Source: a virus
Lineage: Duplodnaviria > Caudoviricetes
IMG/VR virus record: IMGVR_UViG_3300016667_000529
Span: 1 to 36,014 of that record
DNA length: 36,014 bases
Strand: one strand, 5' to 3'
Shown here: one piece after another, positions 13,529 through 31,530 of the stretch
Position numbering within the stretch: position 1 is the stretch's first letter
How the letters are laid out: each line of letters begins with the position of its first letter
Made by a program: the position numbers and the translations under genes
Notes under the pieces: model-generated
The model's input: only the letters and a program-made list of their open reading frames with translations
Told to the model about the DNA's origin: nothing
Databases searched by the model: none

Positions 13529-13704
13529 TGCAGCGTCCTTCCATCGCTCGATCCGAGGACCATCTCCTCGATCATATTGCCAGCAACCCGCATGGTGGCG
13601 ACAAGCACCAGTGGTTCGATCTCGTAGTTGTTGTCCTCATGCCACTCGTGCATGGCGCGCAGGGAGATCTCACACACGAACTGCACCAATTCTTCAGGAA
13701 GCAT
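13525..13704 (-). CDS. Hypothetical protein (59 aa, MLPEELVQF)
   Basis: TAATG overlap with the helicase stop and ATGA overlap with VRR-NUC. Confidence 0.55.
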   Translation of the reverse strand: MLPEELVQFVCEISLRAMHEWHEDNNYEIEPLVLVATMRVAGNMIEEMVLGSSDGRTLQ

Positions 13705-15188: not shown

Positions 15189-15412
15189 TCCACCCTCCAG
15201 ACACGGATCCCGTCGTCGTCACGGCGACAGGCGAACTTCATTCCGGTGCGATGACCGGTTGCGTAGGCGCGCTTGGCCACGTGCCCGCTGGGCGCCTCAC
15301 TCGCTGGGACATAGATCGATTGCCCCACCTGCATATCCCGGAAGCGGTACGACGCCGGCCGGCCATTGCGGTACGACGCCGGCATAGGAACGCCGTCTTC
15401 GATCTGGGTCAT
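15185..15412 (-). CDS. Conserved small phage protein (DUF7303-like, putative nucleic-acid binding)
   Basis: IEDGVPMP..YRFRDMQVGQSIYVP..GIRVWRVE pattern. Confidence 0.65.
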   Translation of the reverse strand: MTQIEDGVPMPASYRNGRPASYRFRDMQVGQSIYVPASEAPSGHVAKRAYATGHRTGMKFACRRDDDGIRVWRVE

Positions 15413-15582
15413 AACATATTCCTCCTCATCTTCTCCTGCTTCAGCACATGGGCTGCAGCTTCACGGTTCACTCCGTATGACTGCATGATCTGCTCCACAG
15501 TTCTCGCAAGGAGATACTCATCGGTCCACGTTGCAGCCATCCCGGCAGCAAACAGTATACCATCATCCTTCTTCTTGGCCAC
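15409..15582 (-). CDS. Hypothetical protein (57 aa, not in ORF track)
   Basis: Translated by hand: MAKKKDDGILFAAGMAATWTDEYLLARTVEQIMQSYGVNREAAAHVLKQEKMRRNML. GTG start after GAGGGG; ATGA-coupled to the downstream gene. Confidence 0.65.
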   Translation of the reverse strand: MAKKKDDGILFAAGMAATWTDEYLLARTVEQIMQSYGVNREAAAHVLKQEKMRRNML

Positions 15583-15585
15583 TAT

Positions 15586-17940: not shown

Positions 17941-18328
17941 CCAACCCCAGCATTTCAGCGAAGCCGCTCAAGGTGTCAGCAAGCGTGTCACCGAACAGCT
18001 TCATAGACAGATCGAAGATGTCGCCAGCCTCGCCGGTCGCGAAGTCCTTCCATCGCCCAGTACTCAGAGAAACACCCAGAGATGGCTTGGTGTCATCGCG
18101 CCAAGGAGTGGTGCATACCCACCATCCACCCTGCTTACTACCGTGACGCAGCCAGTGACTGCATAGCGCCTCAATGTGCGCGGATGTCAGGTGAGACTTG
18201 ATGTTCTCAATGGAGTGGGTCCGGGTGTTGACGATCCTGCGCGGAGCGGAAAGGCGGGACGCTTGGGCGCTGGCTCGATGGGTTTTAGCGTGAGCTTGGA
18301 CAGCACCATCGCACCCGGACTTGTTCAT
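17924..18328 (-). CDS. Stand-alone primase N-terminal (CHC2 zinc-finger-like) domain protein; start uncertain
   Basis: CTTPWRDDTKPSLGVSLSTGRWKDFATGEAGDIFDL matches the DnaG ZBD pattern CPFH.D..PS..V......CF.CG..GD with most Cys/His ligands replaced. Confidence 0.75.
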   Translation of the reverse strand: MNKSGCDGAVQAHAKTHRASAQASRLSAPRRIVNTRTHSIENIKSHLTSAHIEALCSHWLRHGSKQGGWWVCTTPWRDDTKPSLGVSLSTGRWKDFATGEAGDIFDLSMKLFGDTLADTLSGFAEMLGLGDGKG

Positions 18329-18330
18329 AG

Positions 18331-18402
18331 TAGATACCCTTTCGCAAACGAGTCGTCAAACTCGCGAACTACTAACCTGTCCCAGAAGTGGGTCAGGTGT
18401 CA
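18331..18402 (-). promoter_or_regulatory. Putative promoter(s) for the replication genes
   Basis: TTGACG-17 bp-TATCTA (18359-18331), with a second TTGACA at 18402-18397. Confidence 0.5.
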
Positions 18403-18416
18403 ACGGGGTGTGGATA

Positions 18417-18674
18417 TTATTCGTCGATGCGGCCCTGCGTGTACAGGCTGCAGAGCGAGAGGAGGAATAGACGCTCCGTCGGATTCAGCTTCAGGGGAGC
18501 GGACAGTCGCTCAATGTGATCGACCGCGGAACCCGGAAGGTCGATGGCTAGTCGGCAGATAATCTTTGCCTGCTCAGTGATCATGCTCATGCGGTCGATG
18601 TCCAGAGAGATGGGCTGAGCCGCAGCCGGCGATGAGGTGAGAGCGAGCGAGAGTGCGATCAGGATTTTATACAT
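18417..18674 (-). CDS. Small exported protein with Sec signal peptide (85 aa)
   Basis: MYKILIALSLALTSSPAAA|Q signal peptide; GGAG RBS; two Cys in the mature part. Confidence 0.7.
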   Translation of the reverse strand: MYKILIALSLALTSSPAAAQPISLDIDRMSMITEQAKIICRLAIDLPGSAVDHIERLSAPLKLNPTERLFLLSLCSLYTQGRIDE

Positions 18675-18749
18675 TGCGTTGCTCCGGTATCTTTGTTTGA
18701 GATTTACAGTATGTGACCTAACGCGCGGATTGATTGCGGAGGGGTTGGC

Positions 18750-18954
18750 GGTGGGGGAGTGACGGGCTTCCACCGTCTGCGCCGTTTGCAACCGGCTCTG
18801 GTCTGTCAATAGCTGGGCTTCCACCAACATTCAGCAAGGGCGGCACACCAGCGCTCTCTTGCCATAGCCCTGCCTCGGAAGGCGGACTAACCTTTGCTGG
18901 GACCGTCTAAACGATCGCGAATGCTAACCCTACTCTTGGCAGGGAAGACGGCCC
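18750..18954 (-). ncRNA. Putative structured non-coding RNA with two T-loop-like hairpins
   Basis: Has its own promoter, nested stems, and two 5-bp hairpins with the identical loop UGGAAGC (see findings). Confidence 0.55.
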
Positions 18955-18956
18955 GC

Positions 18957-18985
18957 ACACTAGCCTAACGCGCGGGGTTAGGCAA
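18957..18985 (-). promoter_or_regulatory. Putative sigma70 promoter of the ncRNA
   Basis: TTGCCT-17 bp-TAGTGT; overlapped by the inverted repeat GCCTAAC/GTTAGGC. Confidence 0.55.
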
Positions 18986-18988
18986 GGT

Positions 18989-19270
18989 TCACCCTTCCCC
19001 CACGATCTTGGCCGGGTCGAGGGCGCGGATTGCTTCGCGCAAGGTTCGCCGGGTCCATTGACCAACAGTTTCGCATTCGCCCGACGGCGTCTTACTTGGC
19101 GCAACGGTTGCCGCCGCCTCAATCGCCAACCGCGCGCCTTCCAGCTTGCCGCGTTGCTCTGCTGCGATGCGGTGGCGGGCAACATGACGAGCAAGCGCAG
19201 CCTTTTCGTGCGTGGACAGCCATGCGTGGTCAACAATGTCACGATCTTCCTGCGTCACTTCAACCATCAT
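18989..19270 (-). CDS. Hypothetical protein
   Basis: Coupled ORF in the minus-strand operon; ARHRIAAE..GARLAIEAAA..AIRALDP phage-type helical protein. Confidence 0.65.
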   Translation of the reverse strand: MMVEVTQEDRDIVDHAWLSTHEKAALARHVARHRIAAEQRGKLEGARLAIEAAATVAPSKTPSGECETVGQWTRRTLREAIRALDPAKIVGEG

Positions 19271-19499
19271 GCGTCCTTTCGAGTTCTGCGCGGACGGCTA
19301 AGATTGGAAAGCCTGTGTCCGAGTCAATAAGGTGCGGCGGACAGTAATCTTCATTCATACAATGTGGACGTGATGTTTCGCTGCCCCACCTGCTGCCTGT
19401 CCAGCAGGTATTTTTAATTGGAAATCCGTTACGGCAAATCATGCGCCGATCAATGTATGCGCTACATGGCCCCCGCGCGATCTTCGCTGCGTCAGTCAT
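19260..19499 (-). CDS. Hypothetical Cys-containing protein
   Basis: ATGA coupling with the upstream gene; lower-GC interior. Confidence 0.5.
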   Translation of the reverse strand: MTDAAKIARGPCSAYIDRRMICRNGFPIKNTCWTGSRWGSETSRPHCMNEDYCPPHLIDSDTGFPILAVRAELERTHDG

Positions 19500-19822
19500 G
19501 GCTTGGCTCCTGCGAGGGCAGCTATTTGCATGCGAGACTGTGCGTGGATGCGCGCGGCTTCAACTGGCATCCCATCGACACGCCAAAAATACCGGAACAT
19601 CCATTCCTCTAGTGCGCTCAGCAACGCCTTCTCCCGCTCCTCCGCAGCGCGCAGGGCTTCGGTCAGGCGGGTGATTTCGGCGGGTGATCCCACCGGCTCC
19701 TGCGGCGCTGGCTGCATCGCTGCGATAGCGGCTTCGGCCAGCCCGGTCAGCGCATGGGGCTTCAATCGCATTCCGCACATTTCGCCCAGATAGTCTGACA
19801 GGGCCTTCTCGATCTGGTTCAT
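19496..19822 (-). CDS. Hypothetical protein
   Basis: AAGGA RBS; ATGA coupling at both ends. Confidence 0.65.
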   Translation of the reverse strand: MNQIEKALSDYLGEMCGMRLKPHALTGLAEAAIAAMQPAPQEPVGSPAEITRLTEALRAAEEREKALLSALEEWMFRYFWRVDGMPVEAARIHAQSRMQIAALAGAKP

Positions 19823-20118
19823 GTCGGTTCCTTCGGTTGGTGCTGGCGCATTTCAGCAACCTTGTCCTTGGCTAGCGCGGTGGCGAGAATATCGCGCAGC
19901 TTTTCGCGTTCGCGCTTCTCATCAGCGGTTAGCGGCTGGCACCATTCGCAGCGCCGGGTGCAGAGGCAGGTTCCTTCACCTTCGTCATAGGTGTCGCACT
20001 GCCAATCCCACGAACAGCCATAGGTAAAGCCCTCGCCCCCGCAGTTGGCGCAATCATTGGCGTCGTCATCATAGTTGTAGCAGTCGCAGTTAGCGCGATC
20101 GCATTGGTTGCAGTCCAT
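19819..20118 (-). CDS. Cys-rich zinc-finger protein (99 aa, starts MDCNQC)
   Basis: CNQC, CDC, CANCGGEG (DnaJ-type CxxCxGxG), CLC, CEWC. The ORF-track extension to 20379 overlaps another gene. Confidence 0.65.
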   Translation of the reverse strand: MDCNQCDRANCDCYNYDDDANDCANCGGEGFTYGCSWDWQCDTYDEGEGTCLCTRRCEWCQPLTADEKREREKLRDILATALAKDKVAEMRQHQPKEPT

Positions 20119-20179
20119 CACACACCCCGCGCTTTGAGTGCTGCGGCTGCGAGGGCTAGGGCCTCGGTGTCGGTCATGG

Positions 20180-20740
20180 TCATTGGGGTTCTCCAAGGGC
20201 TGCGCGGGCTTCTGCTTCGCTGGCGTGTTCGGTGTAGGTGAACCGTTCATCAGCGTCCGGGTCATTCGATACGTAAACAGCGCACCAGATTGATGGCAGG
20301 GCTGCGGCGCAATGGATCTCGAACACATGGACGCCCGGTAGAGGGTCATAATCTTCATCAATGACTTCGCTCGGGTCAAACTTACAGTATTCGGGATAGT
20401 CTGGATGGTAAAACCAAGTGGGGTTTGTGAGTTTCTTCAACCGCGCATTCTCTGCCCGCAGTTCGCGGATTTCGGTGAGCATGGCGGGGGCGGAATTGTG
20501 GAGGGCGACGATCAGGGCGGCGTTGGACGTTGCCTCTTTCCATGAAATCCGACGCTCGGAATAATCTGCGTCACTCCAGTTGTGTTGGCAGTAAGCAAGG
20601 AATGTTCCGAGCGATCCGGCCTTACCGGGCAGGCAAACAGCCGTCGCATGGTCGCCTACCTCGATGGGGTCAAATTCCGTATCCCACTCCCCCGGCGTAG
20701 CAGCCGCCAACAGCCGCTCCAGTTCGTCAATGTCAACCAT
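20180..20740 (-). CDS. Ead/Ea22-like protein
   Basis: MVDIDELERLLAAATPGEW..NAALIVALHNSAPAMLTEIRELRAENARL signature; TGATG coupling. Confidence 0.75.
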   Translation of the reverse strand: MVDIDELERLLAAATPGEWDTEFDPIEVGDHATAVCLPGKAGSLGTFLAYCQHNWSDADYSERRISWKEATSNAALIVALHNSAPAMLTEIRELRAENARLKKLTNPTWFYHPDYPEYCKFDPSEVIDEDYDPLPGVHVFEIHCAAALPSIWCAVYVSNDPDADERFTYTEHASEAEARAALGEPQ

Positions 20741-21063
20741 CACTTCACACCTCGAATGATCCCGCGGCCGCGCTTGGTTATTCCCCAGATGCTGCTGTCC
20801 GGGGTGTTGCCGTAGCCATGATCGTCTGGAAGGGCGCGACTGTCGACCAGCCCCTTGAACCACAGCACCTGCATTGCATCCGCGCTGGCGCGCAGGTGGC
20901 GGCGCGCGACCATGCCCCAGTCCCCACATCCATCACCGGATATTCTTTCAAGGCGACGTAGGATCTTGATCTCGCGTTCGGTGACGGGCTCCGTCACAAT
21001 AACCTCAGGGCTGCCGACAGTGACGGCATACACCTTGATACCCGGATCATACGTAAACATCAC
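20740..21063 (-). CDS. Hypothetical protein, possible winged-helix
   Basis: TEREIKILRRL..LWFKGLVDSR..WGITKRGR wHTH-like pattern; GGAGG RBS. Confidence 0.6.
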   Translation of the reverse strand: MMFTYDPGIKVYAVTVGSPEVIVTEPVTEREIKILRRLERISGDGCGDWGMVARRHLRASADAMQVLWFKGLVDSRALPDDHGYGNTPDSSIWGITKRGRGIIRGVK

Positions 21064-21227
21064 TCGTCCTCCATACTAAGCACGATCTCAAACGTGCGGC
21101 CTGCCCAGATGAAGCCAATACGGGCGCTGCAATCCGGGCAGAAGGTGCGCAGCTTGTCGGCGTCTTCGATGATCCGCTTGCCCAGTTCGGCTGCGAACTC
21201 TGGCTCAGGTTTAAAATCTAATGTCAT
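21060..21227 (-). CDS. Hypothetical protein (start uncertain)
   Basis: MTLDFKPEPEFAAELGKRII..; coupled to the downstream gene. Confidence 0.5.
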   Translation of the reverse strand: MTLDFKPEPEFAAELGKRIIEDADKLRTFCPDCSARIGFIWAGRTFEIVLSMEDE

Positions 21228-21294
21228 CGGGGTTCCAGTCGTAAATGTCCCAGCCAAAGTTCAGCCAGAGCCAGTGGCGCAGGGCGGGGTTCAT
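21211..21294 (-). CDS. Trp-rich micro-protein (27 aa)
   Basis: MNPALRHWLWLNFGWDIYDWNPDDIRF; ATGA overlap with the upstream stop and GAGGA RBS. Confidence 0.5.
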   Translation of the reverse strand: MNPALRHWLWLNFGWDIYDWNPDDIRF

Positions 21295-21542
21295 TCGCCG
21301 TTGTCCTCAATCACTGCGTTGTTCCACCTCCACACATTGCAGCCCATGATCTCGAAGCATTGCGCAAGGCTTGGCTTTTCGTCCATGCCAAGCGAGTAAC
21401 GATGCCATCCGCCGCCTGCGTTTTCGCAAGTATCATAGCGTGCAGGAGCTTCGCCCTTGCCATACCATGTCAGGGTGTATCTCGATCTCATTCCGGCAGG
21501 CTTTACCTCAAGTACGGGGTACGCGAATATGCTGGTCATCAT
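21291..21542 (-). CDS. Hypothetical protein (MMTSIFAYP)
   Basis: ATGA coupling at 21539-21542. Confidence 0.55.
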   Translation of the reverse strand: MMTSIFAYPVLEVKPAGMRSRYTLTWYGKGEAPARYDTCENAGGGWHRYSLGMDEKPSLAQCFEIMGCNVWRWNNAVIEDNGE

Positions 21543-21763
21543 AGCCCGAAGTACTCCTCCAGATCGTTGCGGGTCAGCGCGCCGTCGATGCTTTCGCATT
21601 CGAGGTAGAGCCGGCCGATCTCCTTTAGTACGGCTCGCGTTGCGACTGCGGCGCGCGGCATCCACACACGGGCGTCAACCTCCCACCAACCATCATCGGT
21701 GTCATCGCCAGCCATCGCCCGCGCGATCCGGGTCAGGCGCGCATTAGGTTCAATACCTGTCAT
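21539..21763 (-). CDS. Hypothetical protein (MTGIEPN)
   Basis: GGAGG RBS; RIARAMA..W...AAVATRAVL pattern. Confidence 0.6.
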   Translation of the reverse strand: MTGIEPNARLTRIARAMAGDDTDDGWWEVDARVWMPRAAVATRAVLKEIGRLYLECESIDGALTRNDLEEYFGL

Positions 21764-21878
21764 CCCAGTCCTCCCTATCATCCAGTGGCGCCGTGATGAT
21801 CGCATAGAGGACAACCGAGAAGCTGACGATCACAGTGGTCAGCACTATGGTGACGGCGATAATCTGCGGCGTGGTCAT
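21750..21878 (-). CDS. Single-pass membrane micro-protein (42 aa)
   Basis: MTTPQIIAVTIVLTTVIVSFSVVLYAIITAPLDDREDWDDRY; ATGA-coupled. Confidence 0.6.
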   Translation of the reverse strand: MTTPQIIAVTIVLTTVIVSFSVVLYAIITAPLDDREDWDDRY

Positions 21879-22144
21879 TTCTTCTTCCTCTCTTCCTCAC
21901 GGGCCTTGCGTTCGCGCATGATCCGCGCCCGGGCCAGATTGATTGCGTCGTCGAGATACTTCGCTTCACAAGTGGCCTCGTCCTTTCCCATACACACTGT
22001 GGCGACCGCATTGCCGTCGGCCATGTCGATGTTTGGGCCGCGCGTCCCCAAGCTGACGATCACATAATCATCCTGATCCATCATCAGGGAATACAGGTCA
22101 GCCTGAAGGCGCAGGATCCGACTGCGGGGCCAAGCTTCGCTCAT
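21875..22144 (-). CDS. Hypothetical protein (MSEAWPRS, 89 aa)
   Basis: GAGG RBS; ATGA coupling at both ends. Confidence 0.6.
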   Translation of the reverse strand: MSEAWPRSRILRLQADLYSLMMDQDDYVIVSLGTRGPNIDMADGNAVATVCMGKDEATCEAKYLDDAINLARARIMRERKAREEERKKK

Positions 22145-22269
22145 TTCTTCTTCCTCTCGGACATCAACTTCCAGAACCTGCGGTCTTCGTCGGACATCGG
22201 TTGCAAGCCAGCGTAATCTTCCGCCGGCCGGGATGTGGATCGGACCACGCCATTGATGATGTAGCGCAT
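22141..22269 (-). CDS. Hypothetical micro-protein (42 aa)
   Basis: MRYIINGVVRSTSRPAEDYAGLQPMSDEDRRFWKLMSERKKK; TGATG and ATGA coupling fill the gap exactly. Confidence 0.55.
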   Translation of the reverse strand: MRYIINGVVRSTSRPAEDYAGLQPMSDEDRRFWKLMSERKKK

Positions 22270-22565
22270 CACTCAATGTCCTTCACGAACACGCCGCCCA
22301 CCATGCGGCCCTTCCGATCCTTAATCTCCTGCCACGCCTGTTCTATGCAGCCCTCGATGGACACGCCGGTCTGCTCAGCCATGATCGTGAGCACCACAAC
22401 CATGTCGCCGATGGCATCCCAGACCTCGCTCTGCCGGCTCCGGGCAAGGCCGGCGGCCAGCTCACCCATCTCCTCGGCCAGCTTGATGAACTGCTTGTCG
22501 GCGCTGCTGCCATCAATCAGGTTGCGGTCACGCGCCCAACCGCGGATGTCTTCGAAACGGTTCAT
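22269..22565 (-). CDS. MazG-like nucleotide pyrophosphohydrolase
   Basis: WARDRNLI..QFIKLAEEMGELA..DAIGDMVVVL..AWQEIKDRKGRMVGGVFVK. Confidence 0.9.
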   Translation of the reverse strand: MNRFEDIRGWARDRNLIDGSSADKQFIKLAEEMGELAAGLARSRQSEVWDAIGDMVVVLTIMAEQTGVSIEGCIEQAWQEIKDRKGRMVGGVFVKDIE

Positions 22566-22574
22566 TGCATTCTC

Positions 22575-23189
22575 CTATACTGGCATCTTCGACAGCGGTT
22601 TACGCTGCTTGGTCAGTCCATACTTCACACGCTCGAGCTCGAGCAGCTCACGCTCACGCTGCTCACGCAGTGCGGCGGCATCATTCGTGCGACTTGGATC
22701 CCACTGCATGGGGCCGCGCTTCTTCTTATGGATGGTGGTGCGCAGCGCATTGGCCACGAACCTGTCGCAGGTGTCACCCTGAAGGAACGCGAACACCTTG
22801 CGAGGATTGGCCAGCACCAGCGTCGATAGCCCGTTCAGCGGCACCCCGCTCTCTCTCATCCATGCCATCACCTCACGGCGCAGATCATCTGATTCCTCAA
22901 CGGACAGGAGCTCGTCGATCCACGAAGCCTCCTTCGCCACCTCCTGCTTCGCATCCCTGACAGGCTTCTGGAACACACCGCTATCGAAGCGGGGTGGCCA
23001 CGTCAGCCGGCAGCTCAGGAAGTACAGCCACTGATCGAGCTCATCCAGCGTGACGCCAATGTATTTCGCCGCTGCCTGCCTGCTCTTGCAGTCGTTCGCC
23101 GCCGCATCACATAGCCGCAGCAGCCATTGCCTCTGCTCCGGTGTAAGGTGCTCGACCTCACGCCATGTCATGCGGGGGTGGTCAGTCAT
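22575..23189 (-). CDS. Hypothetical protein with HTH-like segments
   Basis: SRQAAAKYIGVTLDELDQWL HTH-like; start assigned to MTDHPR. Confidence 0.6.
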   Translation of the reverse strand: MTDHPRMTWREVEHLTPEQRQWLLRLCDAAANDCKSRQAAAKYIGVTLDELDQWLYFLSCRLTWPPRFDSGVFQKPVRDAKQEVAKEASWIDELLSVEESDDLRREVMAWMRESGVPLNGLSTLVLANPRKVFAFLQGDTCDRFVANALRTTIHKKKRGPMQWDPSRTNDAAALREQRERELLELERVKYGLTKQRKPLSKMPV

Positions 23190-23448
23190 TGGCCAGCCGA
23201 TCTGCCACCAGCTTGGCATACCCGGCGATGTCCACCCATGAGTCGGCGTATCGCGGATCCCCGTTCACGATCCGGCCGATCTTGTGAGCGATCATATCGA
23301 GAGCCTCGACCATGTCGTCCTCCATCTTAACGAACGACGGGCCCTGCCTGATCTCATACTTAATAGCCTGCGTGATGCGGGCATGATCCTTAAACTCACC
23401 GTATCGCGAGCCACGCTCGGTCAGCACTGCGTCGATATCTTCCGCCAT
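23182..23448 (-). CDS. DUF6378-like protein (all-alpha NTP pyrophosphatase-related)
   Basis: LTERGSRYGEF..EALDMIAHKIGRIVNGDP..DSWVDIAGYAKLV. Confidence 0.85.
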   Translation of the reverse strand: MAEDIDAVLTERGSRYGEFKDHARITQAIKYEIRQGPSFVKMEDDMVEALDMIAHKIGRIVNGDPRYADSWVDIAGYAKLVADRLAND

Positions 23449-23606
23449 CTTTTCTCTCCTTCCTTGCGCACCTCGATGTGCATCGTGGTCGCGTCATCCA
23501 TTTCGTACAGGTACAGATACCTCTCGGCCTCAGCTATTGCCCGATCGTCGTCGCCGAACCCTGAGGCAATGACCAACCCGAACTGCTTGATGCGCCAGCT
23601 CAGCAT
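23421..23606 (-). CDS. Hypothetical protein
   Basis: MLSWRIKQFG..; fills the operon gap, GGGG RBS. Confidence 0.5.
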   Translation of the reverse strand: MLSWRIKQFGLVIASGFGDDDRAIAEAERYLYLYEMDDATTMHIEVRKEGEKRWRKISTQC

Positions 23607-24157
23607 CGTCCCCACTCACGGATACGGGTGGCATAGGCCGGCGGGATCTGCCCGGCATTGCGCCAGTAGGTACCCATCGCCGGGCTCACACCCAGCTTGC
23701 GGCAGATCTCCGTCTGGTTCAGGCCGGTCAGCTCCTTCGCTCGTTCCATCGTCAGCTTGTGGTGCTGCGACTGGACCAGATAATACAGATCCTCGAACGC
23801 CTTCAGCGGCACCTCTTCAAGGCCCCACCTCCATGCCTCGACCTTCTTCTTGCCTACCCCATGCAGCTTGGGCAGGTGGCGCAGGCCGACACCGCACGCA
23901 GCGACCATCGATTTATATGCGACGGACAGCTGCTTGTAATCGAGCCGGCGCTGCCGCCCTTCATAGTCCGGCGTGACCTGCTCGATGGTGGCATTGATAG
24001 CCTCGGCCACCTTCGCCCGATACTGCTCCGGTATCTCCTTCTGTCGCCGCCACTTCTCGATGGTGTAGCGATTGATCGGATACCCCAGCAGCCGGACCAT
24101 TGCGGATATGCCACCGACGCGCTTGAGAATTGCGCCGAATGAGAGACGCTGTTCCAT
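23600..24157 (-). CDS. Multi-HTH Cro-like protein
   Basis: GGISAMVRLLG..TIEKWRRQKEIP, LPKLHGVGKKKVEAW and QTEICRKLGVSPAMGTYWRNAGQIP. Confidence 0.7.
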   Translation of the reverse strand: MEQRLSFGAILKRVGGISAMVRLLGYPINRYTIEKWRRQKEIPEQYRAKVAEAINATIEQVTPDYEGRQRRLDYKQLSVAYKSMVAACGVGLRHLPKLHGVGKKKVEAWRWGLEEVPLKAFEDLYYLVQSQHHKLTMERAKELTGLNQTEICRKLGVSPAMGTYWRNAGQIPPAYATRIREWGRC

Positions 24158-24330
24158 CAGTCCGCCTGTACAAATCGGCCGCGCTCGTCACGCTTGGGTC
24201 CACGCTTCATCCGCTCGCGCATCAGCGTGTCGATTGCCTTGCGCAGATACTGTTCCTCAGCCCGGCGCATAACCAGCTGTTGCTCCAGCTCACGGACCAC
24301 CAGCCACGGCAGGAAGATACGTTTCAGCAT
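24157..24330 (-). CDS. Hypothetical protein (57 aa) with RDERGRF motif
   Basis: MLKRIFLPWLVVRELEQQLVMRRAEEQYLRKAIDTLMRERMKRGPKRDERGRFVQAD; AAGGGA RBS; TGATG coupling. Confidence 0.65.
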   Translation of the reverse strand: MLKRIFLPWLVVRELEQQLVMRRAEEQYLRKAIDTLMRERMKRGPKRDERGRFVQAD

Positions 24331-24331
24331 G

Positions 24332-24583
24332 TCACAGTCCCTTCTCTTTCAGTGCAGCCAGCAGTTCCTCGACAATATCGGACAGCTTGCGCGCCTCACC
24401 TGCCGGCACTGCGGGATCCGGTGTATTGCGCAGCTCCTTGAGGTGCGCTGACACTTCCTTGACGCGCGCCTTGGGGATCTCGCCGCGCGCTTTCCACCAT
24501 CCGACAGCGGCGGAGCTGACGCCGATAGCCTTGGCCAGATCCTTCTGGCCTCCATGATACTGGTACTCTTTCGGGAACTTCAT
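24332..24583 (-). CDS. Cro/YdaS-like HTH protein (83 aa)
   Basis: GGQKDLAKAIGVSSAAVGWWKARGEIP; ATGA coupling at 24580-24583. Confidence 0.8.
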   Translation of the reverse strand: MKFPKEYQYHGGQKDLAKAIGVSSAAVGWWKARGEIPKARVKEVSAHLKELRNTPDPAVPAGEARKLSDIVEELLAALKEKGL

Positions 24584-24777
24584 ACTTCTTCTCCTACGTA
24601 TTGAGCGATGCCCTCGTCCTCGAACGCCGCCCACAATTCGTGCTCGGGCTTCGCCATCAGCTCCGCATACATCCGTTCGGTCAGCTCGAGCCTCAGCTCG
24701 TGCAGGCTCATCCTCCACACCAGCTTCTCGGCCAGATCCCAGACCCTCTCCGAATGCGAAATCTCCATGCCGTCCAT
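24580..24777 (-). CDS. Acidic hypothetical protein
   Basis: GGAGG RBS; Glu-rich helical sequence. Confidence 0.65.
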   Translation of the reverse strand: MDGMEISHSERVWDLAEKLVWRMSLHELRLELTERMYAELMAKPEHELWAAFEDEGIAQYVGEEV

Positions 24778-24840
24778 TGTCTACCTCCTCGATTGTCCGA
24801 TGCCCCGGGAAAGGGAACACGGGTGGTGCAGCGCGCGGCC

Positions 24841-24981
24841 TCATCGCGTCGCCATCCAATAGATAACGTAGCCCCAGCTGCCTGCGCTGTGAGCAATCGC
24901 CCACACCAGCGAGCCATGCGTGCCGCCGCTCAGCGCCGCAGCCAGCGCAGCGCCTGTCCAGTAAACATCACGCTTACGCAT
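24841..24981 (-). CDS. Small membrane protein (46 aa)
   Basis: MRKRDVYWTGAALAAALSGGTHGSLVWAIAHSAGSWGYVIYWMATR; GGAGG RBS; resembles the small-membrane-protein pattern S..WAI.H...SW.YVIY. Confidence 0.65.
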   Translation of the reverse strand: MRKRDVYWTGAALAAALSGGTHGSLVWAIAHSAGSWGYVIYWMATR

Positions 24982-25210
24982 CGCGCCGTGCCTCCGCGTC
25001 ACCGAAGCAGGTCAGGCCGCTGAGCAGGCGCTCTGCCTCCGCAATCCCGCCCGCGGCCATGCGCTCCAGCCCTGTCTGCAAGTACCGCACCGTCCGCTCC
25101 GCCTCCTGTGCTCGCTCCGCGAAGTCAGTCACATCATCGGTCAGCTCCGCCTCTATCCTCTCAAGGTTCTCGATGTACCGGACGACGATCTCAGTCATCT
25201 TGTCATGCAT
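24974..25210 (-). CDS. Coiled-coil hypothetical protein (MHDKMTE)
   Basis: TGATG coupling at 25210. Confidence 0.6.
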   Translation of the reverse strand: MHDKMTEIVVRYIENLERIEAELTDDVTDFAERAQEAERTVRYLQTGLERMAAGGIAEAERLLSGLTCFGDAEARRDA

Positions 25211-25434
25211 CAGTCCCACCCCTTGCAGCCGCAATAGTATGCGTCGGTTTCCCATGCGCCGTGCGGCTGGAATGCGTGATCCTCATGCTTCCCCGGCGCC
25301 GTGTCCATGTACCCGCATACGCACTGGTGCAGCGCCATCCGCGACGTCTCGCTGCGGTCCTCGAAGAATGCCAGCATATGCCGGTCAGATGGGACAGTGT
25401 GCCCGCAGTACGTGCAGGATGCCATGCGCCTCAT
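25210..25434 (-). CDS. Small Cys/His-rich (zinc-binding) protein
   Basis: CTYC, CVCG, YYCGCKGWD. Confidence 0.7.
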   Translation of the reverse strand: MRRMASCTYCGHTVPSDRHMLAFFEDRSETSRMALHQCVCGYMDTAPGKHEDHAFQPHGAWETDAYYCGCKGWD

Positions 25435-25685
25435 GACAGCGCCTCGTCTGGCAGATCAACGCTAACATCCTGCACACGATTGGCCTTCGCCCGCTCCAGC
25501 GCATCCTCGAGCGCCTCTTTCAGCGTATCACCATACCCATGCTCACACGGAGCCGTGTCTCGATAGTACCCGGACCACCACACCGTAGCCATGCACTTCC
25601 CGGACAGGCGGATGCCGACGTCTACGCGCTGCAGATCGTTCTGACGGACGATCTCGCGCAACGAATTCTCTAACTTACCAGTCAT
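25431..25685 (-). CDS. Hypothetical protein
   Basis: TAATG and ATGA coupling; GYGDTLKEALEDA HicB-like motif (weak). Confidence 0.6.
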   Translation of the reverse strand: MTGKLENSLREIVRQNDLQRVDVGIRLSGKCMATVWWSGYYRDTAPCEHGYGDTLKEALEDALERAKANRVQDVSVDLPDEALS

Positions 25686-26407
25686 TATGCCGCCTCCAGT
25701 TCACGCATCCGCGCGTGCTTCGCGCCTGCCCCATGCGGTGCAATCACAATCGATGCCCGCGCCTTCCCGCTCATTCCCATGCACGCCTTGCAGCTTGCGC
25801 AGTCCGTCTTCTTCCCGGCCTCCGCCGATGCAGGACAGCGCACTTCCTTGCCGAACAGCAGCCCGGCACCAACCCGGAATGTGCGATAGCCCAGCGCCCG
25901 CGCCTCATCGCCCTCGTCCAGCGTGTCGGCCGATGCCATCACCAGCTTCGACCATGCGGGATCGATCCGCTTCCACTGGTGCGTATACCCGGTCCATCCA
26001 GCAGCGTGCTTCACCAGCTCCTGCCAGATAGCGCGCGGCGCTGCAGCCGGATCGCCATACGTGCCCAGCCGGACCATGCGCCCAGCCACCAGCTGCCCCG
26101 CATCCTCCGGGGTGACGGTCTCATAGACACCGCGCAGCCATGCCTGCCACACCGATGCCGGGCCATGCGCCAGCGTGACGTAGCAGCTGCGGCCATTACC
26201 CATGCCGTCGCCCCGATGTTTGCAGTCACCGCAGATCGATTCATCCGCACCGCTGCGCACCGCTGCAATCGGATGCCGATCAGCGCGCAGGATGTACGTC
26301 TGGATCATGTCACCAGTCTTGCTATTGCGGGACCGTGCCTTGAGACCAGTCACCACCACGATAATGCGCTTGCCGTCGATCATGGACGGGCCATCGTAAA
26401 TAATCAT
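25685..26407 (-). CDS. Gp88-like Cys-rich protein (putative Fe-S / radical-SAM-like fold)
   Basis: NSKTG, CGDCKHR..CYV, RLGTYGDP, GYTHQW, MASAD, CPAS..CASCKAC; RBS AGGGG before the ATG at 26407. Confidence 0.7.
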   Translation of the reverse strand: MIIYDGPSMIDGKRIIVVVTGLKARSRNSKTGDMIQTYILRADRHPIAAVRSGADESICGDCKHRGDGMGNGRSCYVTLAHGPASVWQAWLRGVYETVTPEDAGQLVAGRMVRLGTYGDPAAAPRAIWQELVKHAAGWTGYTHQWKRIDPAWSKLVMASADTLDEGDEARALGYRTFRVGAGLLFGKEVRCPASAEAGKKTDCASCKACMGMSGKARASIVIAPHGAGAKHARMRELEAA

Positions 26408-26447
26408 ATCCGTTCCCCTCGTCAAAGCGGGCCATCAATGCGTCTAT

Positions 26448-26475
26448 TAAATACTCTCAATTTAACGGGCGTCAA
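26448..26475 (-). promoter_or_regulatory. Putative sigma70 promoter
   Basis: TTGACG-16 bp-TATTTA in an AT-rich intergenic gap. Confidence 0.5.
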
Positions 26476-26720
26476 CCCCTGTTAAACAGCGCCTCCGTTT
26501 CCTCATACGTCAGCGCCTCGGGACCGCGCCCGCGCCACGGATCGTGCAACAGATCCCGGTCAATGCCCAGCTCGTCGGCCAGCGCGCAAGCCCGGTCCAG
26601 CGGCATGGAATTCGCTTTGATCCATGCGTATACCGCGACGTGCGATATACCCAGCCGATCAGCCAGCGGCCGCGCTCCACCCAGCCGGGCAACGATTGCC
26701 TTGATGCTCGCTCGTTTCAT
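26472..26720 (-). CDS. Cro/YdaS-like HTH protein
   Basis: LGGARPLADRLGISHVAVYAWIKANSMP..GIDRDLLHDPW. Confidence 0.85.
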   Translation of the reverse strand: MKRASIKAIVARLGGARPLADRLGISHVAVYAWIKANSMPLDRACALADELGIDRDLLHDPWRGRGPEALTYEETEALFNRG

Positions 26721-27139
26721 TCTGCCACCTCCTCGAATGCCGAGCCATCCAGCGCGGCCTTGAACCCTGTCACCAACATCGCAATCGTCTGGTCCAGCGT
26801 ATACGGATAGCTCGTTGCCTTGCGCCGGTGAAACCGATTAACATCCGCTCCAGCCCACCCCTTCAGGGGTCGCACTGCCCCGAACCATGACAGCAGCGGC
26901 GTCGGCCAGTCCTTCGACACGGACAGCGAAACCTCCAGCACGCCCGGCACAGCAAAGGCCAGCCTGCATTCGTGCCAGTTACCTTTCGGGGCTACGAAAT
27001 TCCTGCGCCTACCCAGCCATACCAGCCGCGTCAGCTTCACCCCCTCGATTGCGTCCAGCGCCTTCAACAGGTCATCAACAAACCGCTTGCGCTGCGCCTT
27101 CCATCGCAGCTCCGTCACCTCCGTATACCGCTCCATCAC
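26717..27139 (-). CDS. Hypothetical protein
   Basis: GGAGG RBS, coupled at both ends; WFG..DVNRFHRRKAT motif. Confidence 0.7.
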   Translation of the reverse strand: MMERYTEVTELRWKAQRKRFVDDLLKALDAIEGVKLTRLVWLGRRRNFVAPKGNWHECRLAFAVPGVLEVSLSVSKDWPTPLLSWFGAVRPLKGWAGADVNRFHRRKATSYPYTLDQTIAMLVTGFKAALDGSAFEEVAE

Positions 27140-27693
27140 ACCACCTCCACGTTATACTGTCGCCACGACGGCCAGCGGAAATACCCGCCGAACCCGTCCA
27201 CCTTGAACAACGGTTTCGTCCCTGCCCGCAGCACCGTGACCTCCCGGAGCGGGATCCCGTCGATCGTCGGCACGCTCTCGTTCGCAATGCGCAGCCGCAT
27301 ACCCTCAGCCAGCTTCGGCAGGGCCGCGCGCCGGGCATGATACTCGCGGCACTTCGCGCGCCATCCATTCGCGTATGCGTTCTCGGTCGGCGTCAGCGCG
27401 TCCAAGATCCGCACCGGGCAGCGCCATGCGTATGGGCCCATTTCCTCGGACATATCCTTATACCCGAACGTCAGCCCATCGCGCGCCCTCGGGTGAAACT
27501 TCAACAGAAACACCGCGCACCAAACCTCGCGCGTCCCATCCGGGCGCACCCATTCGACAGCCGCATAGTATTCGGTGCGATTCACAATCGCACTGTCCAA
27601 CACGCGCCGCGCACCGCTCTCATTCGCCCACGTCAGCGAGCGATCCAGATCCTCGCGCACGTTCAACGGCTTTTCCTTAAACGTCCAACCCAT
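27136..27693 (-). CDS. DUF6927-like protein
   Basis: MGW.., YYAAVE, FGYKDMSEEMGPY..CPVRILDAL..WRAKCRE signature; AGGAGG RBS. Confidence 0.75.
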   Translation of the reverse strand: MGWTFKEKPLNVREDLDRSLTWANESGARRVLDSAIVNRTEYYAAVEWVRPDGTREVWCAVFLLKFHPRARDGLTFGYKDMSEEMGPYAWRCPVRILDALTPTENAYANGWRAKCREYHARRAALPKLAEGMRLRIANESVPTIDGIPLREVTVLRAGTKPLFKVDGFGGYFRWPSWRQYNVEVV

Positions 27694-27702
27694 ATCCGCC
27701 TC

Positions 27703-27903
27703 CTATAATCCCGCGCCGTCAATGCGCACCGGCTTACATTCCTGTAGCGCCCGGGCGGCCTCACGCTCGCCCTCAAGCCACAGCCAAGAGATAGCCGCAT
27801 CAATATCCCGGAAGGAATGCAGCTTCTTCCGCTCCTCATCGCTCAACAGGAACGCATCCGTTCCAGACCAGCCATGCCAGCGCCCGTATATAAACGCGCC
27901 CAT
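27703..27903 (-). CDS. Hypothetical protein
   Basis: Coupled ORF with GGGG RBS. Confidence 0.6.
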   Translation of the reverse strand: MGAFIYGRWHGWSGTDAFLLSDEERKKLHSFRDIDAAISWLWLEGEREAARALQECKPVRIDGAGL

Positions 27904-27995
27904 CAGACCGCCCCTTCCCTAAACACCAGCGCCACCACCAGCAGCACCAGCAATCCAACCAGCAACAACGTGCCGTCCGTTCCTGTCAGTGTCAT
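27903..27995 (-). CDS. Single-pass membrane micro-protein (30 aa)
   Basis: MTLTGTDGTLLLVGLLVLLVVALVFREGAV; ATGA and TGATG coupling at both ends. Confidence 0.6.
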   Translation of the reverse strand: MTLTGTDGTLLLVGLLVLLVVALVFREGAV

Positions 27996-28369
27996 TCGTC
28001 CTCATCCCAGTTCACGGGCTGCGAGTAATCGAACACATCGTCGTCATCGATCAGCGGCTGTTCTGCAGCGTCTGAATACGGATCATCCCCCTGCAGCAAG
28101 CGACCCATCTGCAACGGCGTCAGCCGCCGACTATCACCCCACGGATCATGCAACCAATCGCGGTCAATACCCATCATCAGAGCAATCACCTCCGCATGGC
28201 GCGTCGGTATGCTGTTCGCCTTCACCCACTTCGAAACAGACGGATGAGAAACCTTGAAACGACGTGCCGTCGCAACCACACCGCCGAAGTGCTGCACCAG
28301 TGCCCCGATGTCCAATCGTCCACCAGTCTCACCACCACATACCCGGCAAATCGTCCTCTGATCGTCCAT
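27992..28369 (-). CDS. Cro/YdaS-like HTH protein with N-terminal CxxC and acidic tail
   Basis: FGGVVATARRFKVSHPSVSKWVKANSIP..GIDRDWLHDPW; GGAGG RBS before the ATG at 28369. Confidence 0.8.
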   Translation of the reverse strand: MDDQRTICRVCGGETGGRLDIGALVQHFGGVVATARRFKVSHPSVSKWVKANSIPTRHAEVIALMMGIDRDWLHDPWGDSRRLTPLQMGRLLQGDDPYSDAAEQPLIDDDDVFDYSQPVNWDEDE

Positions 28370-28405
28370 ATTTTCCTCCAATCCGCAGCTACAACTTTCG
28401 AAAAA

Positions 28406-28434
28406 ACGGTAACCTGACGGGAACCGTTCGTCAA
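28406..28434 (-). promoter_or_regulatory. Putative sigma70 promoter
   Basis: TTGACG-17 bp-TACCGT upstream of the Cro-like gene. Confidence 0.55.
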
Positions 28435-28736
28435 TGGGTACGTAATTTTATTTCCGCATGCATAAAATAGCATGTCACCGATTGGTTACGTGTTCCGTTT
28501 AGGTTACGGAGTCTGTTCCTCTAATTTTAATCCGTCACTTAAAAGGAACGGTGATAAGTGCCCACAAACGCTGGATAATTTCCAAAAACGGGGCAACCGT
28601 AACCCAGAGTGCACAGGAACAGCTACAGGAAAATATAGCTATATAGAGAGAAAAATACCCCGTAACCAAAAGGTTACCATTTTTCCAATTATAAATATAT
28701 ATTTATTGGAGCAGATATATATATATATATGGGGAT

Positions 28737-28760
28737 CTGCCGCGTTTCGGCGGTTTTTTT
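28737..28760 (+). terminator. Intrinsic-terminator-like hairpin on the non-coding strand
   Basis: CTGCCG-CGTTT-CGGCGG hairpin (one G-U pair) followed by a T-run. Confidence 0.4.
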
Positions 28761-28857
28761 AACAGATCCGCCGATTTCTGCGTAGCGGATTTTCCAAAAA
28801 ACGGGAGAAACGCCACGGGACGGCGCTGTTCCCGATATTTCAGTAAACCGCCTGGGT

Positions 28858-29064
28858 TTATTTTACGGCCGCGATTTTGCCGCCCTCCATCACGACGTTG
28901 GCGAAGAATTCCCGCTTGTGCCCGGTCATGTGTGGCCGGTTGCATCCGGTCAGCGTGCCGTCGGCGCGGTATTCCGGGCCGAACATGGATGTTTCGCGGT
29001 AACGCAGGGGCTGGCCGATGCACTCACGCAGGGCTTTCTTGGTCGGATAGTCGAAGATCAACAT
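28858..29064 (-). CDS. Conserved phage hypothetical protein
   Basis: YPTKKALRECIGQPLRYRETSMFGPEY..FFANVVMEGGKIAAVK; GAAAGG RBS. Confidence 0.75.
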   Translation of the reverse strand: MLIFDYPTKKALRECIGQPLRYRETSMFGPEYRADGTLTGCNRPHMTGHKREFFANVVMEGGKIAAVK

Positions 29065-29201
29065 GATGGTCGCCTTTCATTGTGCCGTATTTTGCCCTCA
29101 GAGGGGCCCTACAGCGCGTTCATGGGGTTGCCCGCTAGGTAGGTAGCCCAGAGCACGATATTCGCGCTGAGAACGCCTCCTAGCGGATTTCTGTAAATTA
29201 T

Positions 29202-29372
29202 TTACAAGCGGTGATCCTGCCCACAGGCGGACATAAACCGCGCCAGTTCGAAGCGCGGATTGCTGCGACGCAGCGCAAACCCGATAGACCGGGCAATCGT
29301 GTAAGCGCTTGCATTGTCCGCGCCAGCCTCTCGGATCGCGTCGGCAATCAGAATGAAATCCTTACGTGTCAT
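29202..29372 (-). CDS. Small early protein (56 aa, not in ORF track)
   Basis: MTRKDFILIADAIREAGADNASAYTIARSIGFALRRSNPRFELARFMSACGQDHRL; MTRK.F..IA..NPRF...RF..AC phage pattern; AGGGG RBS. Confidence 0.75.
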   Translation of the reverse strand: MTRKDFILIADAIREAGADNASAYTIARSIGFALRRSNPRFELARFMSACGQDHRL

Positions 29373-29383
29373 ATCGGTTCCCC

Positions 29384-29560
29384 TCAGCTGTGCGTGTATC
29401 CATCGCGTTCAATCCCGAGCCACATCCCGGCCCACTGCAGCATGATGCAGTCATGCCCGGGCAGAACGGCGCGGCGGATCTCGCGATAGGTGCGGCCATC
29501 AGCGCCGCGCCGGTGAATCCGAAGAAGCGCTTCGCGTTGCTTACGTGTAATCGGAAACAT
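29384..29560 (-). CDS. Small early protein (58 aa, not in ORF track)
   Basis: MFPITRKQREALLRIHRRGADGRTYREIRRAVLPGHDCIMLQWAGMWLGIERDGYTHS; GMWLGIE.DGYTHS C-terminus; AAGGA RBS. Confidence 0.75.
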   Translation of the reverse strand: MFPITRKQREALLRIHRRGADGRTYREIRRAVLPGHDCIMLQWAGMWLGIERDGYTHS

Positions 29561-29651
29561 ATCGGTTCCTTTCCCCTATAGTTAACCAGTGCAGCGCCAC
29601 AGCGCCGGACAGATTAACCATATAGGTCAATCCCCTCGCCTCCACACGTTC

Positions 29652-29770
29652 GGGGATGGAACGCATCCCCTAGGGAAACAGTGGCCTTGCAATCGGCCCA
29701 CGTGGCAATGACGCCACCAGAAATCCCGTTGTCAGCGGGCGGGCGGTTAAGCCCTTGCTGGAAAACCAGC
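29652..29770 (-). other. Array of six consecutive short hairpins
   Basis: Stems at 29652-70, 29683-98, 29702-17, 29725-39, 29741-54 and 29757-70. Confidence 0.6.
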
Positions 29771-29788
29771 CAATTACACTAGAACGGA

Positions 29789-30007
29789 TTAACGCGAGAC
29801 GCCCTTGCCGACAGCTCGTGCAGCATACTCGCCGCGATAGACGGATGAAATCATCCCTTCCGTGCGCTCACGCCGGTTGACGCGAGTCAGATTCTCATCG
29901 CGGATTGCCCGTTGCTTCAAGACCAGCGCAGTATTGTGCGCATCACAGGCCTTGAGTGCATCGCGCCGGGCCTTCGCCTTCCGGCGTTGGTTGCGAGTAA
30001 GTGCCAT
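29789..30007 (-). CDS. Arg-rich basic protein (72 aa), first gene of the early arm; possible N-like RNA-binding protein
   Basis: MALTRNQRRKAKARRDALK..; RBS GAAAGGGA before the ATG at 30007. Confidence 0.7.
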   Translation of the reverse strand: MALTRNQRRKAKARRDALKACDAHNTALVLKQRAIRDENLTRVNRRERTEGMISSVYRGEYAARAVGKGVSR

Positions 30008-30103
30008 GTTAACCGTCCCTTTCGGTGGGCCTTGCGGCCCTAGGTTTATGTAAGCTTTCCGGGGAAAGCCTCTCTTGCTAGTCGTCAAACCAGCGATGCA
30101 TTA

Positions 30104-30131
30104 ACAGTAATTCAATCAACTCACTTGTCAA
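30104..30131 (-). promoter_or_regulatory. Early promoter P2
   Basis: TTGACA-16 bp-TACTGT. Confidence 0.65.
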
Positions 30132-30134
30132 GCG

Positions 30135-30475
30135 TTTTGTTTGACGCTGGTTTGCTGCAATGGCGCGGCGTACACTCGGACCGCCACCCGCAAACCTAGT
30201 CGAAACATAGTGGCGACTGCGCCACCCGCTTAGTTGATCAGGACCGCAACCGCTGGCCCGCTTGGTAGGGGACTAAATCCCCGTTTCGCCTTACCGCCCC
30301 TTGGGGTCGTTGGAGCGTATTCCCGCTGCCTTTAGCCCTGCGGTCCTGATCTATCTCGGCAGCGGCTAGGGGAAGCATTCACTCCCATCCGGTAACGGCG
30401 CAACCCGCTATCCCTAGCCTTCTGCCTTCTCAGCGAAACCAGCTGATCACTGCCGTGGGGTTTCGCTTTCGATGT
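30135..30475 (-). ncRNA. Putative ~330-nt highly structured RNA (ncRNA or leader) between P1 and P2
   Basis: Five non-overlapping helices, including a perfect 13-bp stem (30236-48/30339-51); no credible ORF. Confidence 0.65.
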
Positions 30476-30479: not shown

Positions 30480-30540
30480 ACAATACCGATTTGATTGATT
30501 AGGTCAATACAGTATTTTCGATTAAAAATAAAAAAATAAT
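30480..30540 (-). promoter_or_regulatory. Early promoter P1 with UP-like element
   Basis: TTGACC-16 bp-TATTGT (30507-30480) preceded by an A/T tract at 30513-30540. Confidence 0.7.
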
Positions 30541-30609
30541 CGAGCAAGCCGATCAAGCCCTACGCAAGCAAGCAAGATCCCGCGATTGCGCGCGTGATTG
30601 ATAACATCA

Positions 30610-30730
30610 CCCCGCCTGCCCCCGCCCACGCGCTTGCCCGCCAGCGCACGCACGCACGCGCACCACGCGCACGCACGCATCATGCACGCCCGCGCACCAG
30701 CCCGCGCGCCCACGCACCCCCACCCACCGA
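30610..30730. repeat. C-rich (CGCA/CACG)n low-complexity tract in the divergent control region
   Basis: GCGCACGCACGCACGCGCACCACGCGCACGCACGCA; almost no T on the + strand. Confidence 0.7.
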
Positions 30731-30898
30731 GAATCTCAGGAAGGCCGGGGGTAAATATAGATATATACCCAACCACACCCGCATTCTGGGAATTTTCCGC
30801 CCGCCCCCAGCGAAACCATTCTGGTTACCCCACCCCTGAGATCACCCCCGGTAGGGGCACCCTGTTTGGTTCCATACCCAGCGCGCCGGGATTTCGCG

Positions 30899-30963
30899 GC
30901 CGAGATTGACACAGTTCGAGATTCCCCGCCGAGATTGACACAGTTCGTAGACAGGATTATCTA
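30899..30963 (+). promoter_or_regulatory. Putative late promoter with duplicated -35 module
   Basis: 20-bp direct repeat GCCGAGATTGACACAGTTCG at 30899 and 30928; the second copy gives TTGACA-17 bp-TATCTA. Confidence 0.6.
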
Positions 30964-30969: not shown

Positions 30970-31530
30970 ATGGAAGACGATCTGGAGGCTCTGCTGGCTG
31001 GAGTGCCTGATGAGGCGCTTCCGTTTGATGTCACACCCTCTTCCGGGCCTGAGCCGCTGCAGTTGCCGGCGCCGAGTGGTCGGTTGTCGCCTGAGGAGAT
31101 TTTTGCGCGGACGTATGTGCGCAATGGGAATGACGCGGCGGCTGCGGTTCGCAAGGCTGGTCTGCAGGACGCGCGTTATGACATGGAGTACGTGGTTCGG
31201 GGCTTGCTGAGCCGGCCGGATGTGCAGGCGTATATTGAGCGTGCGCAGGACATGGTGGCGGCGGATCGGGATGTGGGCCGATATACGCGGGAGTTTTTCC
31301 TGCACGGCTTGCAGGAGGTGCGTGAGAAGTCGATGGATGCGAACCAGTTCGCGAGTGCGATATCGGCGACGAAATTGCAGGCTCAGCTTCTGGGGATGCT
31401 GGAGCAGACGGTTAATGTGAACCACAGTGTGTCGCCGCGTGAGCTGTCGCTGGCGGATTTGCGGGCGATGGTGGCGAAGCACGCGGTGGTTGATGGTGAG
31501 ATGAGGGTTATTAACGATGGCGGTGAGTGA
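30970..31530 (+). CDS. terS: Terminase small subunit
   Basis: EEIFARTYVRNGNDAAAAVRKAG..LLSRPDVQAYIE..AISATKLQAQLLGML; lies upstream of terL. Confidence 0.85.
   Translation: MEDDLEALLAGVPDEALPFDVTPSSGPEPLQLPAPSGRLSPEEIFARTYVRNGNDAAAAVRKAGLQDARYDMEYVVRGLLSRPDVQAYIERAQDMVAADRDVGRYTREFFLHGLQEVREKSMDANQFASAISATKLQAQLLGMLEQTVNVNHSVSPRELSLADLRAMVAKHAVVDGEMRVINDGGE

Follow-up and report, generated by a model that had tools for sequence, protein, structure and literature searches.

Sequence comparison indicates that a 341-nt stretch on the minus strand of an uncultured phage genome (positions 30135–30475) is part of a real, selected and uncatalogued phage RNA, which occurs in relatives as a natural domain-swap series and whose function is putative. 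An earlier, sequence-only reading of this DNA had proposed a structured noncoding RNA behind the first early promoter, and our analysis supports that proposal. The window (the whole stretch of DNA analysed) is the 36,014-nt linear virus record IMGVR_UViG_3300016667_000529 (Duplodnaviria; Caudoviricetes), which is 66% complete. Terminase and portal genes run rightward from 30970 and small early genes run leftward from ~30007 (Table 1). The nearest cultured phages, namely Pelagibacter HTVC023P/027P, Roseobacter CRP-901 and Caulobacter RW-type phages, are still distant, with 30–35% identity in the large terminase and 27–41% in the portal protein. The best plasmid matches of the SSB encoded in the window are alphaproteobacterial, with Novosphingobium, Paracoccus and Sphingomonas at the head, which suggests that the host is likely to be an alphaproteobacterium. 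Sequencing runs containing most of the stretch came from freshwater, aquaculture, aquatic and wastewater metagenomes, and 14 DNA runs contain 40–100% of it.

Table 1. Features of the RNA zone in the window and gene-free early RNA zones of relatives
Feature	Positions	Strand	Remarks
Small terminase gene (terS)	30970..31530	+	Divergent from RNA zone; upstream of large terminase; PF03592, E 0.012, below Pfam cut-off
G-rich motif kept across relatives	30717..30735	-	Variable cassette starts just past it; L001 identity breaks near 30691
P1, sigma70-type promoter-like site TTGACC-16-TATTGT	30480..30507	-	Predicted start near 30473; 16-nt spacing same in relatives
Closing helix, 5' strand	30467..30473	-	Can pair in each of four alleles, though with low probability in window
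Hairpin H1, optional insert	30432..30467	-	Absent from X15 contig
Long hairpin H2, optional insert	30358..30426	-	3' strand matches a stretch of L216 RNA at 15/17 letters
H3, perfect 13-bp stem closing ~90-nt branched domain	30236..30351	-	11-nt motif 30327-30317 and hairpin order common to the different insert of L121
Core hairpin H4	30209..30226	-	3/7 pairs change on both sides
Closing helix, 3' strand	30199..30205	-	Invariant in the alleles compared
Core hairpin H5	30149..30196	-	6/13 pairs change on both sides; 16-nt loop 30181-30166
A/C-rich linker, conserved	30132..30148	-	May be UP element of P2 or RNase-sensitive spacer
P2, promoter-like site TTGACA-16-TACTGT	30104..30131	-	L001 and L121 have both hexamers but a diverged spacer
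Hairpin just after P2	30077..30094	-	Compensated version inside L216 RNA
Orphan 72-aa Arg/Lys-rich ORF	29789..30007	-	Occupies place of further RNA in L001 and L121
Second noncoding folded stretch	29561..29788	-	z -2.83; module 29697-29684 common to L001, L121 and L216
Gene-free early RNA zone, L073	4083-4532	-	No Rfam match
Gene-free early RNA zone, L078	571-1021	-	No Rfam match
Gene-free early RNA zone, L079	4312-4790	-	No Rfam match
Gene-free early RNA zone, L218	1185-1630	+	No Rfam match
Gene-free early RNA zone, L216	955-1440	-	No Rfam match

The minus strand of the stretch folds at -150.9 kcal/mol (z -4.22), and none of 100 shuffles was as good. Among 31 other 341-nt minus-strand segments of the genome, used as a control with 12 shuffles each, two reached z <= -4 and the median was -0.1. 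Folded singly, the hairpins gave z values of -2.96 (H1), -3.76 (H2), -4.90 (H3), -2.49 (H4) and just -1.08 (H5). All five helices described in the sequence-only reading, together with its closing pair, were found, and its verdict that the stretch holds no credible open reading frame was borne out by six-frame translation, which gave only short frames, none of them retained in relatives. The closing pair, UCGAAA/UUUCGA, had been offered only as a possibility. Its potential to pair is present in four alleles, yet the 3' strand does not vary, and the predicted pairing probability in the window itself is low (0.2–0.36), compared with ~0.7 in L001; in L121 the helix is out-competed.

When the two strands were compared, the minus strand folded at -149.6 with 13 G-U pairs, versus -132.2 with 4 for the plus strand, which fits a minus-strand RNA. 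This asymmetry, and the acceptance of G-U pairs in the covariation described below, speak against a signal at the DNA level, in which the hairpins would serve entry, packaging or replication near a genome end. The element also starts at the predicted transcription start in all carriers, and it is absent from most relatives, although those must package DNA too. What prompts such a reading is that the zone adjoins terS and that Caulobacter phage RW, a distant cultured relative, has its terS region duplicated at both genome ends. By analogy with RW, it is plausible that the RNA zone of the window lies near a genome end, but we regard a function of the hairpins as DNA as very unlikely.

An indication of selection comes from an alignment of three alleles (the window, L001 and L121), with the structure drawn from these same three related sequences. 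Across the core (30226–30149), both partners change in 9 of 20 pairs, a number reached by none of 500 shuffles, and 58 of the 59 H4 and H5 cells (98%) are paired, versus 26–49% in slid controls. The 16-nt loop of H5, which contains a 4-nt palindrome, is identical at 15 positions in the three alleles. Compensatory changes in homologues, which the sequence-only reading had named as a check, are therefore present in H4 and H5, and the reading is not refuted on this point. The covariation covers H4 and H5 only, as the helices of H1–H3 have no homologue for comparison. These results indicate that the core base pairs are kept by selection on the RNA. No complement of the H5 loop of 9 nt or longer occurs in the window.

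The interior of the stretch, by contrast with its core, is swapped or absent among close relatives. L001, a phage 97–99% identical to the window on both flanks, carries another allele between 30691 and 29381, and within this cassette its similarity to the window is confined to 30222–30062, at 76%. A contig from the X15 run skips 30229–30467 (239 nt) and has 23 other letters instead. Between the strands of the closing helix lie H1–H3 in the window, ~25 nt in L001 and ~135 nt of other hairpins in L121; this third interior has the hairpin order of the branched domain and the exact 11-mer of H3, but a different closing stem. The 11-mer occurs only at the window's locus, in L121 and in the unrelated L169, as judged from both strands of 2.04 Mb of loci. 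Contigs of X15 and X16 depart from the window sequence at 30091–30094, so further alleles exist, and at least four interiors are known. The comparison thus resolves the 330 nt into a core of ~100 nt and an optional plug-in of 239 nt (H1–H3). This replaces the single dedicated RNA of ~330 nt that had been claimed: about 240 nt are an optional insert, and the modular zone, of which the stretch forms the 5' portion, is longer. The natural series comprises a core of ~120 nt (L001), a 236-nt form (L121) and the 340-nt form of the window, in phages up to 97–99% identical elsewhere.

RNA modules common to relatives continue past P2, a site that a consensus promoter scan did not flag. P2 had been taken to serve the downstream gene independently, but in L001 and L121 it opens ~390 nt of further folded RNA, 81% alike between the two. 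This second folded RNA spans 4000–4410 (-) in L001 and 950–1330 (-) in L121 and ends in a stem of 16–17 bp before the first gene. The window retains the first 40 nt of the RNA behind P2, which is followed by the 72-aa ORF and then by its second folded stretch, with a long stem immediately ahead of the first ribosome-binding site; it does not have the 3' module of its closest relatives. The first hairpin after P2 has a counterpart in the interior of the L216 RNA, with 2 of 6 pairs changed on both sides and 2 on one side, a weak signal (25 of 500 shuffles as high). In all, L216 and the window have three short modules in common, one of them with compensatory changes. No U-tract follows H5, which makes 30135 just a putative 3' end, and no U-tract terminator was seen behind the RNA in any carrier.

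The orphan 72-aa ORF had no homologue but itself in our search, and three of its five variants in other contigs fall at third codon positions. Its Arg-rich start is reminiscent of the arginine-rich motifs of N and Nun. An N/Nun-like role had no support in Pfam, PHROGs or the homologue search, and the ORF is missing from L001 and L121.

Folded zones of 450–665 nt (z -2.2 to -6.1) with shared modules occupy the same site in seven relatives from three TerS lineages. Those of L073/L074, L078, L079, L218 and L216 are gene-free zones of 450–480 nt, with an extra insert of ~55 nt in L079, and stems of 10–17 bp are present in all ten zones measured. Between L073, L078 and L079, both partners are changed in 24 of 129 predicted pairs; in the 5' domain of this type the covariation, at 1 of 13 pairs, is weak. 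With a model of the 3' module built on L001, L121 and L216, the four L073-type RNAs were retrieved (E 3.5e-5 to 0.036), and short-leader relatives gave no match (42 sources). The core model R1 retrieved only its three training sequences and nothing in the L073-type or L216 RNAs, and the window's loop escaped model R3, which represents the 5' domain of the L073-type RNAs; the wider family is therefore linked by short modules only, and the links of the window core to the L073-type RNAs appear weak. A motif of 14–15 nt, confined to RNA zones in a set of 85 loci, connects the loop of H5 with the initial hairpin in L073-type RNAs; it was composed after the sequences had been seen and is therefore a hint only. 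The covarying RNAs of L073, L078, L079, L218 and L216 merit a separate family description.

How widespread the RNA is was read from a TerS tree of 43 rows, in which 29 of the 42 relatives were measurable and 13 were excluded for too little flank. The distance from the G-rich motif to the early gene was 178–315 nt in 22 of the 29, so this type of phage can express its early genes without the RNA. The other seven had a long zone, identified by script in five and by eye in L074 and L216, where the script called spurious ORFs. Carriers sit in three deep TerS lineages interspersed with short-leader lineages. In a separate count, promoter-to-gene leaders of 29–71 nt were found in 17 of 35 distinct regions; the other 18 comprised 13 with no promoter by pattern, 3 mis-hits, and the window and L001. 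Such patchiness over three lineages, the presence of at least four interiors, and a downstream half that in the window is broken by the orphan ORF and lacks the 3' module would also be expected of a near-neutral hitch-hiking cassette, one that does not affect the host, whose modules are reassorted at a hotspot of recombination next to the genome end and which persists through mobility of its own or weak selection. We consider this unlikely: the compensatory changes and the near-invariant loop require selection on the RNA, and no transposase, homing endonuclease or reverse transcriptase adjoins it among the 10 small or nearby ORFs scanned.

In line with the sequence-only reading, which did not recognise a known family, an Rfam 15 covariance search, which included GOLLD, ROOL, ribozymes, riboswitches and tmRNA, gave no match at the gathering cut-off in the window or in six relatives. 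The best E-value-level matches, all below the cut-off, scored 14–17 bits around the stretch and up to 29 bits in relatives. ARAGORN detected no tRNA or tmRNA gene in the window or in any of five relatives scanned. DNA searches of 50,697 phage records and 72,556 plasmid records gave no match to the stretch, and the RNA zones of relatives gave chance matches of 22–27 nt or none against phages. In pattern scans of viral sequences, 1 of 1 (L001), 1 of 2, 1 of 5 and 1 of 1 matches were real; the scan with two matches also returned L085, which is coding. The metagenome scan gave one real match in 96 (L121) and the genome scan 0 convincing matches in 3, while a last viral scan gave 29 matches, of which 8 adjoin terS and the remainder are chance, many within one coding motif. 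TerS searches added nothing new except the contig of L001 and L082. No description of the RNA was found in the literature searched, in which subscription papers were few. These searches indicate that the RNA family is uncatalogued. Possible likenesses to tmRNA, RNase P, group I introns, c-di-GMP and cobalamin riboswitches, hammerhead, the sarcin-ricin loop and 16S helix 27 were dropped, as they had no Rfam or ARAGORN support.

The multi-branch junctions with conserved unpaired purines raise the question of a self-cleaving or processing ribozyme by which the early transcript would acquire its mature 5' end. The Rfam search, with no ribozyme family at cut-off in the window or the six relatives, makes this highly improbable. 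A weak twister-sister match at 30042–29943 (14.4 bits versus a cut-off of 34, E 8.3) lies outside the stretch, overlaps an ORF and is at chance level, and on inspection by eye the hammerhead core is missing.

A hint of transcription, though weak, comes from a 151-nt metatranscriptome contig (X18, depth 3.3) that is identical to 30307–30457 and contains no other part of the surrounding 3 kb; it carries no strand or ends, and DNA may be present. The other three of the four RNA-labelled runs (X15, X16 and X20) amount to guesses or small shares, or cover other parts of the sequence, and were excluded as expression evidence; in X20, a 35-nt piece at 30324–30358 continues into unlike sequence. Judged by its position only, the RNA would be the very first transcript.

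In every carrier the RNA stands immediately after the first early promoter, the early genes come next, and no U-tract terminator was seen; a leader acting in cis would have this position. In such a role, mainly the two-hairpin core would bind the elongating polymerase, as put RNA of HK022 does, or shield the 5' end, raising read-through or stability of the ~20-kb leftward early operon, with the inserts as tolerated extras. put RNA is a compact abutting stem pair of ~74 nt with a conserved junction residue; it contacts the zinc-binding domain of beta' and, in cis, counteracts pausing and termination (PMC9378689). Like put, the RNA is placed between an early promoter and the early genes and would be structured while nascent, and its core of two hairpins, ~80 nt, is similar in size to the two stems of put (U2–U74; PMC9378689). 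One or two hairpins also stand at this place in several short-leader relatives, and no phage RNA polymerase was noticed among the translated ORFs of the 66% complete genome. However, H4 and H5 do not abut but are separated by 12 nt that include a closing strand, unlike the compact pair of put. The RNA further differs from put in its hundreds of extra nucleotides, in its likely alphaproteobacterial host and in the second promoter downstream, from which transcription would bypass the element. There are also few intrinsic terminators to overcome (16 terminator-like sites over 10300–30200 versus 12.0 +/- 4.2 by chance, no excess), and the 450–665 nt of covarying structure in relatives go far beyond what put needs. 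A cis-acting leader strikes us as rather unlikely, although it is the foremost rival explanation.

Our leading explanation, to which we give slightly less than an even chance, is that the stretch forms the 5' portion of a modular accessory early RNA that is cut from the early transcript and acts in trans on a host partner. Host RNA polymerase would transcribe from P1 at the start of infection and, since no terminator was seen, would continue past P2, with the long stems or the A/C-rich linker as processing sites. Early transcripts of T7 are processed, and on this general basis, together with the stems in the ten zones, host RNases (RNase III or E) may free the RNA from the early message. The closing helix could be a scaffold into which domains plug, and the near-invariant H5 loop could be the working surface, with a host protein or RNA as its partner or, by way of the palindrome, another copy of the same RNA. 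A host-specific benefit, in takeover or counter-defence, would account for a turnover of the cassette like that of neighbouring small early genes. We prefer action in trans because the RNA is dispensable in most relatives and turns over like early accessory genes, because its selected structure far exceeds the needs of a leader, and because it has an independent promoter downstream and an operon with no excess of intrinsic terminators. Its cis-leader position in every carrier counts against this explanation, as does a covariation drawn from three related sequences and H4 and H5 only. We think it unlikely that the RNA goes as far as a plug-and-play scaffold serving as an early anti-host weapon, in which the closing helix and loop form a chassis for swapped decoy or binder domains. 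Each domain would then act as decoy or binder for its own target among host defence or expression factors, the first-expressed cassette would carry RNA domains and small proteins as interchangeable cargo, and the orphan basic protein of the window would replace the downstream RNA half of its relatives.

The closest precedent for action in trans, by analogy, may be the Pleft RNAs of the cluster A mycobacteriophages L5, D29 and StarStuff, which the RNA would resemble most in mode of working. These are described as abundant, processed and host-toxic RNAs of ~500 nt, with ~90% of the transcripts terminating (PMC5712189). They form a long gene-free sequence behind the first early promoter, in a divergent region near the genome end (PMC5712189); here too the zone is gene-free and behind P1, in a record that is linear and 66% complete. 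By contrast, our phage differs in host phylum and phage type, no terminator was seen in its RNA, the stretch has no sequence match in the phage records, and the available part of the Pleft description does not contain domain swapping in a covarying scaffold (PMC5712189). GOLLD and ROOL are large multi-domain phage RNAs, GOLLD with a conserved 3' and a variable 5' region, and GOLLD and OLE form intermolecular kissing loops with palindromic sequences (10.1101/2024.12.08.627333). Our RNA has in common with them an ornate, variable 5' part and the palindrome in the H5 loop. It is smaller, sits at an early promoter and has no Rfam match. GOLLD and ROOL are often near tRNA islands, whereas ARAGORN placed no tRNA beside the RNA here. 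Candidate structured RNAs of 29–151 nt have been found by covariation in phage intergenic regions of IMG/VR, some beside terminase genes (PMC10690425). Three motifs and three contig identifiers had no match in three of the supplements, so a piece of the RNA may figure elsewhere in that catalogue.

A function is known for only a few noncoding RNAs of phages, and those made early might serve host takeover or counter-defence with no need of translation. The RNA adds an uncatalogued family to a widespread group of uncultured freshwater phages with likely alphaproteobacterial hosts. Because near-identical phages provide a natural deletion series, the roles of the core and of each plug-in are directly testable.

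Several smaller features accompany the zone. The G-rich motif is possibly close to a packaging or terminal site. Behind it and an AT-alternating motif, both retained in nearly all relatives, lies a low-complexity GCGT-rich tract; recombination breakpoints map to this region (30600–30735), which is itself a possible packaging or terminal site. Just upstream of terS, at 30901–30941, a 19-nt direct repeat is present in two copies, each with a plus-strand TTGACA; it is kept in L001 and present as a single copy in L121. The two control segments with z <= -4 are 28601–28941 and 10201–10541, both on the minus strand. The first overlaps an AT-rich, repeat-rich gap that resembles TGTAAC-rich tracts of L216 and L218 and is possibly an origin, and the second is the junction of convergent early and late genes. 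A 35-nt stretch, seen via L001, is present twice in the window, at 26535–26569 and 28139–28173, with ~86% identity.
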